A stretch of DNA of 64,000 nt from Flavobacteriales bacterium 33_180_T64 (GCA_002162685.1 MAAQ01000023.1:4259-68258), one strand, 5' to 3'; shown: positions 57,078-62,213, numbered from the stretch's first letter. Numbers and translations are program-made. Notes: a model not told the origin generated them from the letters alone.

Positions 57078-57521
57078 ATGTATATAGATGCGCTCAATTG
57101 GAAGATTTTAAAATGTATTCAGCTTAATGCGAGACAGTCTAATGCTCATATTGGACGTCAAGTTGGGATTAGTTCTCCAGCAGTTTCAGAACGTATTAAA
57201 AAAATGGAAGATGCTGGAATTATTGAAAGTTATAATGCATTAGTATCTCCCTTTGAAACTGGGTATCAATTAAAGGCTTTGATTACACTTCGAGCTTTTA
57301 TGGGAATGTTAAAACCGTTTTTAGTAAAGGTAAAAACCTATGATGAGGTTATTAATTGCTATCGTATTACTGGTAATGAAAATATTGTGATGGAAGTAGT
57401 TTTAAAAAATCAAAAACACTTAGAGTCATTTATTGATCAATTGATCGTTTATGGGGAAACCAAAACCCAAATTATATTATCTCATGTTGTAAAGCATAAC
57501 GAAGTGAAGCAATTAAAATAA
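57078..57521 (+). CDS. Lrp/AsnC-family regulator
   Basis: NARQSNAHIGRQVGISSPAVSERIKKME HTH, CYRITG. Confidence 0.93.
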   Translation: MYIDALNWKILKCIQLNARQSNAHIGRQVGISSPAVSERIKKMEDAGIIESYNALVSPFETGYQLKALITLRAFMGMLKPFLVKVKTYDEVINCYRITGNENIVMEVVLKNQKHLESFIDQLIVYGETKTQIILSHVVKHNEVKQLK

Positions 57522-58283
57522 TTACTTTTCAATAATGAGATGTGGAATATCTTCTAAGTTCCAATCAATTACCAAACCACCTGCAAGACTTTGAGTAATG
57601 TCTTTTCCGTAGAGATACTCACAGAGATATAATGCAGCTTCAAACGATTTAGCTCCTCCAGCTGAAGTTATATATTTTCCGTCGTGAACAAATAAGACCT
57701 CTTTTCTAATATCCAAATTAGGAAAACGTTCTCGCATCGTATCAATATCGCTTGGAAATGTTGTGGATACCGAATTATCTAGTAAGCCTGCTTGGGCTAA
57801 GACAAAAGCGCCATCACAATGGGAGGTTATAAATTGAGCCTCTTTATCTACACGTTTTACAAAATTAATCATGGCTTGATCTTCCAAATCGGAATCCAAA
57901 TGATGCTCAGCACTTGGCACAACCAGAATATCAATTTGTGGGAGTTCATCTTTTGTATAATTAAAATCGGGTAGAATACGCATACCTTCAAATGTGGTTA
58001 TAGGCTTATCTGTGTTAGCAACAGTAAACACATTCATAGGCTTGATGCTATCTCTAAAAATTGTGTGTTGAAAAATATCAAAAGGTGCAGTTAATTCAGT
58101 ATTAAAAACACCATCCATAATTAAAAATGCTACATTATAACGGTTAGGTTCTAATTTTGGAAATTGCTTTTCATTATGCTTAACCTGTTTCTTTGTTTCA
58201 TCATTTTGAGCTTCTTTTTTCTCTTCGGTAGTATTACAACCTGTTAATAATAGGACGCTCAATAAAAATATAATGTGTTTCAT
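57522..58283 (-). CDS. DJ-1/PfpI-family lipoprotein
   Basis: LTGC lipobox, ELTAPFD, ILVVPS, SHCDGA nucleophile elbow, ITSAGG. Confidence 0.88.
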   Translation of the reverse strand: MKHIIFLLSVLLLTGCNTTEEKKEAQNDETKKQVKHNEKQFPKLEPNRYNVAFLIMDGVFNTELTAPFDIFQHTIFRDSIKPMNVFTVANTDKPITTFEGMRILPDFNYTKDELPQIDILVVPSAEHHLDSDLEDQAMINFVKRVDKEAQFITSHCDGAFVLAQAGLLDNSVSTTFPSDIDTMRERFPNLDIRKEVLFVHDGKYITSAGGAKSFEAALYLCEYLYGKDITQSLAGGLVIDWNLEDIPHLIIEK

Positions 58284-58289
58284 TTTATA

Positions 58290-58670
58290 CTATGTGTTAA
58301 TTCGCCAAGGCGGATTTTTTCTGTTTTTTCCAGCGCTAAAAAGTATAATGTGATTCCCGTCTAAATCATTTAAATGCGCTTCTCTCCATAGCCAGCTTTT
58401 ATCTTCAGGTTCCGAAGTAAATATAATTCCTTTTTGTTGAAGATCACTTACGAGTTCATCCAAATTATCATCTTCAAAATAAACTGTAATACCATTTCCT
58501 GCTGAAAGTGTGGCGACTTTATGAATTGAAAACGTTGTATTTCCGTCTGGACATTCAAATCTCACATAACGCGGTAAAGCTTCAACAATCAATTTTAAAC
58601 CTAGAATTTTATAAAACTCAGTAGCTTTTTCAACATCTAATGATGGAATTGTAATTTGGTTTAGATTCAT
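58290..58670 (-). CDS. VOC/glyoxalase-family protein
   Basis: FYKILG, WLWREAHLNDLDGNHI. Confidence 0.88.
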   Translation of the reverse strand: MNLNQITIPSLDVEKATEFYKILGLKLIVEALPRYVRFECPDGNTTFSIHKVATLSAGNGITVYFEDDNLDELVSDLQQKGIIFTSEPEDKSWLWREAHLNDLDGNHIILFSAGKNRKNPPWRINT

Positions 58671-59884
58671 TATAGATTGTTTTTAATACGTTTTTGTAAC
58701 CACAAGGATAATACTACTGCTAATGCACCATAAGTACAAGTGACTAACCAATTGATTTGGTAACCATAATTGTCTACAATGCTTAATCCAATTTTAGAGC
58801 TGAAAATATGGGATAATGAAAATGCAATGGCAAATAAAGCCATGTAACTGCCTTCTACTCCTTCTTTTGCTCTGTTAAGCGCAAATTTATTTGTATACGG
58901 AAACCCTAACATTTCACCAATAGTCATCATGATCATATGTATAATAAGAATACCTATCCAAAAATTCTGAAATATCACAAAGAAACTCAATCCCATAAGT
59001 AAACAAGCTATAAGAATATGTTTTGTCACAGGAATATGTTTTTTTTCTAAGTAATTTATAAAGGGCATTTCAAAAACAACAATAATGGCTATGTTTATGA
59101 CCCAGAATAATCCAATTTCAAATTCATTTAGGTTGAAAATTTCTTCATAATACAAAGGCATAGTTACAACGAGTTGAAAAAAGGCCATACCCATAAAGAA
59201 ACAAATGCCTATAAAAACCCAATACGTAAAATCTTTATAAACGATATTATTGTCTTTTTTTAGGTCTAGGTTTTCTTTGGTTTCAATAGGCTTCTTTCTA
59301 GGCTCTTTTACTAAATAGTAAAACAAAGCAATAGCCAAAATACATGTGATGCCATCTATCCAGAATAGTAGACTGTAACCTCTCGTTACAATAATTAAAC
59401 CAGCAACTGTTGGTCCAATTCCCATACCTGCATTTATTGCTAGTCGTATTAATGCTAACGAACGTGTGCGATTTTCTGGTTTACTGTATGCTTTGAGTGA
59501 TACATAAATTGCAGGGCGAAAAGTATCTGCTACAATCATAACGAATAATATGCCAAAACATAGTCCCCAAAATGAGGTGATGTATTGTAACCCGATAAAG
59601 CTAAGTCCAGTAATAAAAAGACTGATAATCATTACTTTATAAAATCCTATTTTATCGGTTAGCTTACCGCCTAGCCATCCACCTATAGCGGAACCAAGTC
59701 CGAAGAATACAAAAATCCATCCTGCATCGCCTTTACTAAAATCGAGATTTTTTGTAAAGTATAGTGACAAAAACGGAATCACCATAGTCCCAGCTCTATT
59801 AATAAGTGAGATTAATGCTAGATACCAGATTTCTTTAGATAAACCTTGGAAAGATTCGATATAGTTTTTAAATAGTATTTTCAT
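58670..59884 (-). CDS. MFS transporter
   Basis: About 12 TM helices, motif A GGKLTDKIG, NAGMGIGP. Confidence 0.92.
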   Translation of the reverse strand: MKILFKNYIESFQGLSKEIWYLALISLINRAGTMVIPFLSLYFTKNLDFSKGDAGWIFVFFGLGSAIGGWLGGKLTDKIGFYKVMIISLFITGLSFIGLQYITSFWGLCFGILFVMIVADTFRPAIYVSLKAYSKPENRTRSLALIRLAINAGMGIGPTVAGLIIVTRGYSLLFWIDGITCILAIALFYYLVKEPRKKPIETKENLDLKKDNNIVYKDFTYWVFIGICFFMGMAFFQLVVTMPLYYEEIFNLNEFEIGLFWVINIAIIVVFEMPFINYLEKKHIPVTKHILIACLLMGLSFFVIFQNFWIGILIIHMIMMTIGEMLGFPYTNKFALNRAKEGVEGSYMALFAIAFSLSHIFSSKIGLSIVDNYGYQINWLVTCTYGALAVVLSLWLQKRIKNNL

Positions 59885-59904: not shown

Positions 59905-59934
59905 AAAAAGTCCGACGATATCGTCGGACTTTTT
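59905..59934 (-). terminator. Attenuator terminator upstream of the MFS operon
   Basis: Perfect 30-bp palindrome AAAAAGTCCGACGATATCGTCGGACTTTTT, 20 nt before the MFS start. Confidence 0.8.
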
Positions 59935-59962
59935 ATGATTGATTAGTTATATAATTATATTA

Positions 59963-60040
59963 TCATAGCATATAGTAGGTCCGACTCTTATAAAAAGAGG
60001 TCTTCTGTTTTTGTGTATATGTAATGACGCAGTTTTGCAT
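59963..60040 (-). CDS. Leader peptide of attenuator (25 aa)
   Basis: MQNCVITYTQKQKTSFYKSRTYYML*. It contains GTCGGAC, complementary to the terminator 5' arm. The promoter box TAGCTTTG lies at 60062-60069 (minus strand). Confidence 0.7.
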   Translation of the reverse strand: MQNCVITYTQKQKTSFYKSRTYYML

Positions 60041-60099
60041 TTTTCTTATTTTAATATCTGGCAAAGCTATAAAAAAAATGTTTAAGTTGTATTTTTGAA

Positions 60100-60720
60100 A
60101 TGAAAATTATAATTATGAGATCTTATTTACTACTTGCTTTACTATTTGTGTCTACACTAAGTTGTGCACAAGACAAAACGCCAATTGCTGGAGATACCGA
60201 ATTTCAGAAAGAAATTAATGCTGAATATAAAGACGTGACAACATCACCTTTAAAGGACAAGGATAGAAAGAATTTTAAAGGTTTGGATTTTTTTAAATTC
60301 GATTCTACTTTTGTTGTTAAGGCTACTTTTAAAAGAACACCTGAAGCGGAAGTATTTAAAATGAAAACAACAACTAGCCGATTACCAGAATACGTAAAGT
60401 ATGGTGTGGTTACTTTTAACCTTAAGGGAAAAACACATCAGCTTAATATTTATCAAAATCAAGGATTAATCAAGAAAGAAGAGTACAAGGATTACCTATT
60501 CCTTCCATTTTTAGATAATACCAATGGTGAAGGAAGTTATGGTGGCGGACGTTATATTGATATGCGTATTCCTGAAGGCGATACGATAGACATAGATTTT
60601 AATAAAGCGTACAATCCGTATTGTGCTTATAATGAAAACTATTCGTGTCCAATTGTTCCTAGAGAGAACTATGTAGATCTAGAAGTTAAAGCAGGCGTTA
60701 AAGCATTTGGGAAACATTAA
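60100..60720 (+). CDS. DUF1684 domain protein
   Basis: LFLPFLDNTNG, YGGGRYID, DFNKAYNPYCAYN, CP. Confidence 0.9.
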   Translation: MKIIIMRSYLLLALLFVSTLSCAQDKTPIAGDTEFQKEINAEYKDVTTSPLKDKDRKNFKGLDFFKFDSTFVVKATFKRTPEAEVFKMKTTTSRLPEYVKYGVVTFNLKGKTHQLNIYQNQGLIKKEEYKDYLFLPFLDNTNGEGSYGGGRYIDMRIPEGDTIDIDFNKAYNPYCAYNENYSCPIVPRENYVDLEVKAGVKAFGKH

Positions 60721-61091
60721 ATTAATTTTGTAGATACGATATAACCTAGCCATACGCAAAAGAGGCCTAATATAATACTAGACAATAAATAGCTTAAAAA
60801 AAGATTGGTTTGACCAGCTTTTAAAAATGAAATACTTTCATGTGTAAAAGCGGAGAAGGTTGTAAAACCACCACAGAAACCAGCCACCAAAAACACAAAA
60901 AGCTCATTGGATACTTTATGCTTTACCAGAATATAACCAAAAACAGTACCTATAATAAAACTACCAATTAGGTTGACTGTAAAAGTTCCCCAAGGAAAAT
61001 GATAACTATCAGTAGTAAATTGTTTTCCAATTAAAAATCGTAATGTGCTACCAAAACCTCCACCTATAAAGACTAAAACTAACTGCTTCAT
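60717..61091 (-). CDS. crcB: Fluoride efflux channel CrcB/Fluc
   Basis: GGGFGSTLR, PWGTFTVN, GFCGGFTTFSAF. Confidence 0.95.
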   Translation of the reverse strand: MKQLVLVFIGGGFGSTLRFLIGKQFTTDSYHFPWGTFTVNLIGSFIIGTVFGYILVKHKVSNELFVFLVAGFCGGFTTFSAFTHESISFLKAGQTNLFLSYLLSSIILGLFCVWLGYIVSTKLI

Positions 61092-62111
61092 TTACTCAAC
61101 AGCTAAATAAATCTCTGTAATCCAATTTGCAGGATTTGACGTAGATATTGGATCAGTTAAATAAGACTCTAGTGCAGGACCAGTTTCTGGCTGAACTAAA
61201 TTGTTTTCTTTGATGTAAATCATTGTTTTATCCCATGCTTCTTGAAGGTTCTCGTAATTTCCTTTTAAGACTGTTTTAACGGCTTTAAATGGTTCTAATT
61301 GACCAGTAAGAACGTCAGTTTCAGCAGTTGTTATTTTTGAAGTTGTGGGAATACAACAAGAAAACATAACAGTATTATTTTCAAGATCCCATTTGTGATA
61401 AATAACAAATGGCGTTCCAGCCATTGAAACATTATTAGATATCGCATATCCTCCAATTTTTGGCATCATTTCTTGCATTTTTTGTTTGAAATCATCCATT
61501 TTACAAGAGGTTGTATTGTATAAATAAAAGCCACCACTATGGTGTGTCACGCCTTCCACATTGATACTATATTTTTTCATGTCAGCCGCTAAAATACTAT
61601 CAAGTTTTTCTAAGCTTCTTTCATAATTTGGACCTATTTGTTTTTCCATTCCGCCCATAAAAAAAGAGAAAGCTTTAAATCCAAAAGGAAGATCTTTTCC
61701 AGAAATAGACCAAGTCACTTCTGTAGTACCATCATTGATTGGTTTAAGATCCCATCTTACATCAGACTTTGGAAAATCAGCAAATTGCATTTCTTGAATA
61801 ATTATAGCATTAGATTTGGTGTCTGTAGTTTTCATAATCCCAACACCATCTTTATCTTCCCAAGAATAAGAACCATCAATACCTCTAGTGTGTTCAGGAA
61901 GTGTTATTTTTAAGTCAGGATCAGCTTCTACCCATGATGACCAAGCTTCCCAGTTTTTAAAATCAATAACATTTTGGTATACAACACTTGCAGGTGCTTG
62001 TATTGTTTTTGTTCGTTTTACTTCAAACGAATTGGGCTGAACCGCAATATATATTGCGATACCTATAAAAAAGATTAAAAGTAAAAATAGAATATATTTA
62101 AATGCTTTCAT
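61092..62111 (-). CDS. SRPBCC + GyrI-like effector-binding fusion protein
   Basis: N-terminal TM anchor, WEAWSSW, TEVTWS, C-terminal GNYENLQEAW and ESYLTDP. ATG 62111 is preferred. Confidence 0.8.
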   Translation of the reverse strand: MKAFKYILFLLLIFFIGIAIYIAVQPNSFEVKRTKTIQAPASVVYQNVIDFKNWEAWSSWVEADPDLKITLPEHTRGIDGSYSWEDKDGVGIMKTTDTKSNAIIIQEMQFADFPKSDVRWDLKPINDGTTEVTWSISGKDLPFGFKAFSFFMGGMEKQIGPNYERSLEKLDSILAADMKKYSINVEGVTHHSGGFYLYNTTSCKMDDFKQKMQEMMPKIGGYAISNNVSMAGTPFVIYHKWDLENNTVMFSCCIPTTSKITTAETDVLTGQLEPFKAVKTVLKGNYENLQEAWDKTMIYIKENNLVQPETGPALESYLTDPISTSNPANWITEIYLAVE

Positions 62112-62213
62112 TTTAATTGTTGCTATTAAATTAATTAGGTACTCAAAGATAATCAATTTCAGCAGATGTTTATAAATGGTTACATTTGTGAGACAATAAT
62201 TAAATAATTAACA

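Follow-up and report, generated by a model that had tools for sequence, protein, structure and literature searches.

A putative three-gene operon in the genome of Flavobacteriales bacterium 33_180_T64 (3.75 Mb) begins with an MFS transporter gene, and a perfect palindrome stands directly ahead of that gene. What does this palindrome do, and does the short open reading frame before it take part? A preliminary description of the locus had proposed a ribosome-dependent attenuator ahead of the MFS-VOC-DJ-1 operon, built from an open reading frame lying upstream (uORF), a hairpin inside it, a GTCGGAC antiterminator and a terminator. We analyzed this leader on the minus strand of a 64-kb window, the whole stretch of DNA under study (64,000 nt), together with orthologous leaders. 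Comparative evidence strongly supports the proposed core, and the leader is very probably a leader-peptide transcription attenuator of the operon. The stall motif that had been proposed with it, K-Q-K, does not describe the leader family.

The regulated gene encodes a 404-aa protein (Pfam MFS_1, 1.4e-52). NCBI names its orthologues "MDR family MFS transporter". The closest solved structure is NorA, a weak match (E 3e-7). NCBIfam models matched the protein only weakly and below threshold; TIGR00900 led with 65 bits, where the cut-off is 320, and these matches included no Mef model. A VOC/glyoxalase-family gene follows, its start overlapping the MFS stop, and a DJ-1/PfpI-family gene is the last of the putative operon (both by Pfam). 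Among the 79 loci with enough flank, VOC lies directly downstream of MFS in 43 and DJ-1 at most 1.2 kb downstream in 25. The divergent neighbor upstream of the leader is a DUF1684 gene (Pfam), found there in 76 of 82 loci with enough flank. At the other end of the operon, an AsnC/Lrp-family regulator gene (57078-57521, plus strand) converges on the DJ-1 gene, and the two gene ends, 57521 and 57522, abut. The features of the region are as follows.

60090..60097, plus strand: candidate -7 box TATTTTTG for the DUF1684 gene
60062..60069, minus strand: -7 promoter box TAGCTTTG (TAnnTTTG) of the leader/MFS transcript, read from the sequence
Between box TAGCTTTG and the uORF ATG, minus strand: A-rich spacer of 21 nt, read from the sequence
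59963..60040, minus strand: leader uORF, 25 codons plus TGA, peptide MQNCVITYTQKQKTSFYKSRTYYML; ATG at 60040, TGA at 59965-59963
60016..60028, minus strand: 5' strand of the outer anti-antiterminator helix, GUCAU..CAUAUA, codons 5-9 (RNAalifold, compensatory changes)
59983..60002, minus strand: inner hairpin P1, GACCUCUU / AAGAGUC (fold and covariation); arms in the DNA are GACCTCTT at 60002-59995 and AAGAGTC at 59989-59983
59979..59985, minus strand: antiterminator segment GUCGGAC (DNA GTCGGAC), codons 19-21, complement of the terminator 5' arm
59962..59974, minus strand: 3' strand of the outer helix, UAUAUG..AUGAU, including the uORF stop UGA (RNAalifold, compensatory changes)
59935..59961, minus strand: A/U-rich linker of 27 nt, from outer helix to terminator, conserved in sequence
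59905..59934, minus strand: intrinsic terminator, 13-14 bp stem, 4-nt loop, U5 tract (fold and covariation); 5' arm GUCCGAC at 59929-59923, 3' arm GUCGGAC at 59916-59910
58670..59884, minus strand: MFS transporter gene, the regulated gene
58290..58670, minus strand: VOC/glyoxalase-family gene
57522..58283, minus strand: DJ-1/PfpI-family gene

The box, the 25-codon frame and the palindrome of the preliminary description are thus all in place on the minus strand. The palindrome, AAAAAGTCCGACGATATCGTCGGACTTTTT (written AAAAAGUCCGACGAUAUCGUCGGACUUUUU), occupies 59934-59905. It is perfect over 30 nt, or over 32 nt with the flanking T/A, and 20 nt separate it from the MFS ATG at 59884. GTCGGAC in codons 19-21 (59985-59979) had been described as exactly complementary to the terminator 5' arm GTCCGAC (59929-59923). 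The sequence bears this out, and the pairing is conserved in the 97 leader copies examined below. The 3' arm of P1 has GUC in common with the antiterminator segment. The terminator hairpin (59905-59934) was not listed by a simple terminator scan; ViennaRNA scores the same hairpin at -18.4 kcal/mol. The 20-nt core of the palindrome occurs once in the 3.75-Mb genome, so a REP- or MITE-type repeat was rejected. The leader fold has a z-score of -3.8 against dinucleotide shuffles. With the unique core and the conservation of the whole layout in relatives, this indicates that the arrangement is more than chance.

Distribution of the leader and its reading frame

A DNA search of relatives found the intergenic region kept in about 30 Psychroserpens species, with a palindrome that was often 100% identical and flanks at 70-80%. 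A covariance model, R1, was built from 28 Psychroserpens leaders. Of 401 Flavobacteriaceae genomes, 140 yielded a full-length copy, one in each, and together they represent 117 of 302 genera. Among the carriers are Winogradskyella, Dokdonia, Tenacibaculum, Polaribacter, Kordia, Lacinutrix and Algibacter; none came up in what is probably Flavobacterium. In 401 evenly sampled Bacteroidota genomes (180 genera), every full-length match fell within Flavobacteriaceae. The orthologous MFS gene, with the N-terminal sequence NTFKGLSxEVWWLALIT, follows the leader in 96 of 97 aligned copies. For the remaining copy, L106, the script found no long open reading frame downstream of the leader.

The MFS orthologue itself is present in 246 of the same 401 Flavobacteriaceae genomes. 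We sampled 20 genomes that have it and lack an R1 match. With filters off, a diverged leader in the expected orientation immediately ahead of MFS came up in 15 of these (L263, L266-L269, L271-L277, L279-L281); none was seen upstream of MFS in L264, L265 and L270. The layout of the diverged leaders is unchanged, with a TAnnTTTG box, an ATG-initiated uORF and a terminator just before the MFS start. Their terminator stems are different ones: GCCCGGC/GCCGGGC, CGCCCAAC/GUUGGGCG and CGUCCAAC/GUUGGACG. The 15 diverged leaders among 20 R1-negative genomes indicate that the element probably accompanies most copies of the pump gene. One genome, G214, has its leader match at C1:1083619-1083768 and its best MFS match, at 56% identity, at C1:1500936-1502114. 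The two are 417 kb apart, which suggests two MFS paralogues, only one of them preceded by the leader.

We used 97 aligned orthologous leader copies for the uORF and helix counts. Frame 0 is open in all 97, while the other two frames are open in 20 and 4. The uORF starts with ATG in 94 copies and GTG in 2, spans 22-28 codons, and ends in TGA in 83 of 96. Its length is kept in frame: the distance from the ATG to the stop anchor is a multiple of 3 in 93 of 97 copies (classes of 60, 69, 72, 75, 78 and 81 nt). In 74 of 97 copies, 36 nt of linker separate the stop anchor from the GUCCGAC stem core; its overall range is 34-40 nt, with no triplet periodicity. This contrast between a frame-kept uORF length and a linker varying by 1-2 nt gives a Fisher p of ~1e-15 with related sequences counted as independent. 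Just 5' of the ATG, A predominates strongly and occupies -3 in 89 of 97 copies, a start context that fits the Shine-Dalgarno-less initiation of Bacteroidota. In 88 of 97 leaders a TAnnTTT[GA] box is found 18-23 nt 5' of the ATG. TAnnTTTG is the -7 promoter element of Bacteroidota.

The peptide is conserved only loosely, with the consensus M-R-N-N-V-T-I-Y/C-[RK]-[KQ]-Q-x-T-S. Nucleotide entropy by codon position showed no clear third-position excess, and amino-acid-level selection on the leader peptide was therefore rejected. The coding evidence thus comes from start, stop and frame maintenance rather than from amino-acid selection, and we do not claim a conserved specific arrest sequence. Judged from the alignment, the uORF is under reading-frame constraint, its start and stop are fixed relative to the RNA helices, and the precise peptide is not constrained. 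By the same comparison it is probably translated, as the frame of an attenuator would be. A 3-codon mini-ORF (ATG ATA ATA TAA) over the uORF stop was considered and set aside. It is conserved in Psychroserpens, and its TAA is not kept family-wide.

Covarying helices and their predicted order of folding

Three helices of the full-length RNA emerge both from RNAalifold and from an unbiased mutual-information scan: the outer helix, P1 and the terminator. Structure counts were taken from the 97-sequence alignment. The OFF-state helices are 88% paired, against 37-47% in slid controls, and contain 181 double-change cells against 47 in shuffles; these are related sequences, so the shuffle statistics here and below overstate independence, and the alignment was fitted to the OFF-state structure, so the pairing leans towards it. 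Pairs of the outer helix are among the top mutual-information pairs, with compensatory changes from C-G to U-A in 20 of 97 copies and from U-A to C-G in 19. The 4-bp core of P1 has 11-17 double changes per pair. Two Psychroserpens leaders illustrate its behavior. P1 reads CUUUU/AAAAG in L015, a compensatory version. In L025 it is wholly different, GAUCG/CGAUC (DNA GATCG/CGATC), and the hairpin still forms with the uORF frame kept.

The antiterminator, GUCGGAC paired with GUCCGAC, is absent from the covariance model and therefore provides an independent test. Its cells are 94% paired across the 97 sequences, against 16-43% in slid controls. Double-change cells number 17, where shuffles give 1.8, and none of 500 shuffles of these related sequences reaches 17. 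The antiterminator also becomes the RNAalifold consensus once the terminator 3' arm is omitted. The terminator stem is 94% paired, with double changes at 8 pairs, including G-C to A-U in 11 copies, U-A to C-G in 10 and A-U to G-C in 7. Psychroserpens L020, L025 and L029 carry a three-way change. Their terminator has gone from GTCCGAC/GTCGGAC to GTCTGAC/GTCAGAC, and the upstream segment is GTCAGAC or a near variant, with CAG for CGG in all three. By this alignment, then, all four helices (outer, P1, antiterminator and terminator) covary. Variable sites in the Psychroserpens alignment fall in the spacer before the ATG, the P1 loop and the terminator loop.

The preliminary description had P1, written as GACCTCTT/AAGAGTC, partly sequester the antiterminator segment. 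The hairpin is present and covaries. The main sequestering structure is a different one, made of the outer helix and the hairpin together. On the evidence of fold and covariation, the anti-antiterminator is two-layered, the outer helix enclosing both P1 and GTCGGAC. In the OFF fold GUCGGAC is only partly paired, with GUC in P1 and GGAC in a loop, so that sequestration would be largely topological.

The conserved 36-nt linker is without explanation in a ribosome-based model. The mutual-information scan found no canonical covarying partner for it, and a second antiterminator helix or a linker hairpin was rejected on this ground. Candidate linker pairings, UAUGAU/AUCAUA in the window and AUAUUGU/ACAAUAU in other genera, do not fall in the same columns. 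One possibility for the segment at 59935-59961 is a module that pauses RNA polymerase or sets timing.

Folded step by step, the leader of the window passed through a succession of three structures. Between about nt 94 and nt 130 the anti-antiterminator (-9.9 kcal/mol) scores best. Emergence of the 5' arm tips the balance to the antiterminator (-17.0 kcal/mol against -12.6), which gives way to the terminator (-18.4 kcal/mol) after another 6-12 nt. The same succession was seen in orthologues, in 65, 72 and 90 of 91, and the terminator lies within the full-length minimum-free-energy fold in 90 of 91. We also computed the effect of a ribosome masking the RNA. With the P site on codons 1-15 GUCGGAC is free, and on codons 16-24 it is blocked. 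The steric model of a stalled ribosome in the preliminary description holds in this computation. At equilibrium, the mask model favors the antiterminator as soon as the 5' arm has emerged, whether or not a ribosome is present. It was therefore rejected as proof of default termination, and a default-OFF state depends on an assumed kinetic trap.

A proposed attenuator and its alternatives

The leader contains the parts that define a ribosome-dependent attenuator: a uORF, a terminator before the gene, an antiterminator that excludes the terminator and an anti-antiterminator overlapped by the uORF. An open uORF of frame-kept length, with compensatory changes in terminator, hairpin, outer helix and antiterminator, is what argues for this reading. 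Both the uORF and the GTCGGAC:GTCCGAC complementarity, whose loss in relatives would have spoken against the preliminary description, are conserved in the orthologous MFS leaders.

The pathway would run as follows. Transcription would start a few bases 3' of box TAGCTTTG, and a ribosome would initiate at the A-rich, Shine-Dalgarno-less start of the 25-codon uORF. The uORF RNA would fold so that codons 5-9 pair with the stop-codon region, enclosing P1 and GUCGGAC. If this anti-antiterminator has already formed, or if the ribosome occupies codons 16-25, GUCGGAC would be unavailable. The terminator would then form 20 nt before the MFS start and transcription would stop. A ribosome held with its P site at about codons 1-15 would instead prevent the outer helix from forming. 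GUCGGAC would then be free to capture the emerging 5' arm GUCCGAC, no terminator would form, and the operon would be transcribed. The kinetic step is that the 3' arm would appear too soon for a pre-formed outer helix to rearrange. We infer the default state, the kinetic folding order and the stalling signal of this attenuator.

Could the switch work without a ribosome? A ligand or protein might stabilize the anti-antiterminator or the antiterminator, as in a riboswitch or protein-binding RNA switch, leaving the ORF incidental. Weak peptide conservation would be expected of such a switch, and it would offer a role to the conserved unpaired codons 9-12 and the 36-nt linker, which have none in the ribosome model. 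An incidental ORF would hardly stay open in 97 of 97 copies, take indels in threes only inside its own bounds, keep its ATG and A-rich start context and hold its stop codon at a fixed structural position. The fold, moreover, consists of three simple helices without a complex conserved junction, and there is no Rfam match. We consider a ribosome-free switch very unlikely. A ribosome could also be stalled by shortage of a charged tRNA, Tyr or Asn, in the classical logic of amino-acid operons. In favor of this, the leader is built like trp-type attenuators, codons 3 and 4 most often specify Asn (~50% each), and the window's leader has four Tyr codons, which the preliminary description had offered as a sign of amino-acid sensing. 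These four are an outlier, the Tyr count being 1-3 in 92 of 97 leaders. Tyr8 is Cys in 26 of 96, and the leader Tyr codons sit in the AU-rich UAUAUA strands of the helix. Asn3-Asn4 is Asn-Cys in most Psychroserpens leaders. The per-codon table of aligned leaders holds no conserved run or cluster of one regulating residue, and the controlled genes are an MDR-named transporter, VOC and DJ-1 rather than a biosynthetic pathway. Tyr sensing in particular is not borne out, and sensing of a tRNA shortage as a whole has, in our estimate, a similarly slim chance.

The palindrome might also act as DNA, and the rest of the arrangement be coincidence. It would then be an operator, for example for the nearby AsnC/Lrp-type regulator, or a leftover bidirectional terminator. 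It is a perfect dyad between divergent genes, and its stem GTCCGAC...GTCGGAC is unusually invariant, at 100% in many Psychroserpens leaders with flanks at 70-80%. Slow evolution of the stem is accounted for by the triple constraint on upstream segment, 5' arm and 3' arm, and no DNA-binding protein is needed. Where the stem does change, it changes by compensatory substitutions, and the upstream third segment covaries with it. Diverged leaders have quite different stems (GCCCGGC or CGCCCAAC), the loop is free to vary, and a U-tract always follows on the MFS strand. A leftover terminator would need a gene that ends here, and the flanking genes diverge from the region. This DNA-based explanation is scarcely tenable, the least probable of those considered.

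Possible stalling signals and relation to known attenuators

For the ribosome-dependent attenuator, the preliminary description had named K11-Q12-K13 as a macrolide stall motif. This does not hold for the family. Only 15 of 97 leaders contain [RK]x[RK] within residues 5-15, and the macrolide "+x+" argument thus fails to describe the family. The K-Q-K of the window is the product of a 3-nt insertion that just two further Psychroserpens species share. The feature retained is a basic/Gln-rich stretch at codons 9-11 ([RK][RKQ][RKQ] in 63 of 97), within the unpaired segment between the outer helix and P1. Our best guess, which we hold as perhaps evenly balanced, is that the signal would be ribosome-targeting compounds or a general slowing of translation. 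It draws on analogy with the Bacillus and mef(E)/mel leaders and on the "MDR family MFS" naming.

A more specific proposal is speculative, and we think it more probably wrong than right. The leader would be a family-wide translation-stress sensor of marine Flavobacteriaceae, in which the loose peptide core V-T-I-Y/C-[RK]-[KQ]-Q arrests the ribosome on a natural product exported by the pump, and the 36-nt linker serves as an RNA-polymerase pause module that sets the timing. The natural product could be, for example, an algal or bacterial ribosome-targeting metabolite. If true, this would be the first ribosome-read efflux-pump attenuator described in Bacteroidota, on Shine-Dalgarno-less mRNAs.

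Leader-peptide attenuation is established for drug-response genes of Firmicutes (PMC4335068, PMC6851288, PMC9226507, bioRxiv 10.1101/2025.01.13.632840). In Bacillus subtilis, the drug-response leaders of this type are bmrB-bmrCD, vmlR, tlrB (yxjB) and ytbDE (PMC6851288, PMC9226507, bioRxiv 10.1101/2025.01.13.632840). As in these leaders, the RNA of a short uORF is the anti-antiterminator here, followed by an antiterminator and an intrinsic terminator before a transporter or resistance gene, and read-through would be expected on an early ribosome stall in the uORF. Bacillus ytbD is also an MFS gene, like the gene regulated here. There is no sequence or Rfam relationship to the Bacillus leaders, and the phylum is Bacteroidota. 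Initiation here is A-rich and without a Shine-Dalgarno sequence, and no second layer sequestering such a sequence is evident.

The macrolide-efflux attenuator of mef(E)/mel (msr(D)) has a 327-nt leader and an 8-residue peptide, Mef(E)L, MTASMRLR (PMC4335068). There too, the 5' leader of an MFS efflux gene exerts control through a leader peptide and a Rho-independent terminator. In contrast to its R-L-R arrest motif, [RK]x[RK] is found in 15 of 97 leaders here, and the leader is ~150 nt with a peptide of 22-28 residues. The pump is not a Mef orthologue. The element is chromosomal, vertically conserved and of fixed synteny, not on a mobile element. Neither of the features of macrolide "+x+" leaders of the ErmDL and Mef(E)L type, a conserved motif and an Erm, Mef or Msr downstream gene, was found.

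The classical amino-acid leaders trpL, hisL, leuL and thrL share the logic proposed here, in which no translation or complete translation would lead to termination and a stall inside the uORF to read-through. They also share the placing of the stop codon inside the sequestering helix. They differ in that the present leader has no run of regulatory codons and its downstream genes are not biosynthetic. By comparative evidence, the element would work like known leader-peptide attenuators, and every testable defining feature of the class is present. For Flavobacterium psychrophilum, a study of the transcriptome described leader-peptide attenuation as likely, with clues only at amino-acid operons (PMC9723704). 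Our full-text search found no description of this leader element, and no described example of an efflux-pump leader-peptide attenuator in Bacteroidota.

A Bacteroid-trp leader motif exists in Rfam, and Rfam searches of the leader and the window gave no match to it. At permissive E-values the only matches were terminator-like and sub-threshold (for example MicC, AgrB and Trp_leader at 15 bits). Three leader peptides tested against NCBIfam matched no model. A known RNA family or leader-peptide family was rejected, since nothing reached a curated threshold in either database. Over the whole window, Rfam returned only two tRNAs at gathering score, and no fluoride riboswitch. The crcB gene (60717-61091, minus strand) comes directly after a 354-aa SRPBCC + GyrI-like gene (61092-62156, minus strand).

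The element is single-copy and vertically inherited, and no fewer than a third of the sampled Flavobacteriaceae genomes carry it. Because it is widespread and probably goes with most pump copies, it could serve as a regulon marker and, in these abundant marine bacteria, as a natural reporter of anything that stalls ribosomes. It is also a test case for transcription-translation coupling and attenuation where initiation needs no Shine-Dalgarno sequence. In practical terms, the leader merits an Rfam-style family and the uORF merits annotation.

The divergent DUF1684 gene also gained a revised start. The mechanical ORF list begins it at ATG 60100. It is the ATG at 60115, CTCATAATT on the minus strand, that all Psychroserpens relatives keep, and this is most likely the start to be used. 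Read from there, the N-terminus is MRSYLLLALLFVSTLSC..., which resembles a lipoprotein signal peptide. Box TATTTTTG lies 17 nt upstream of this ATG, back to back with leader box TAGCTTTG, in a conserved block, CAAAAATACAACTTA on the minus strand, that is nearly invariant in Psychroserpens. It is presumably the DUF1684 promoter.
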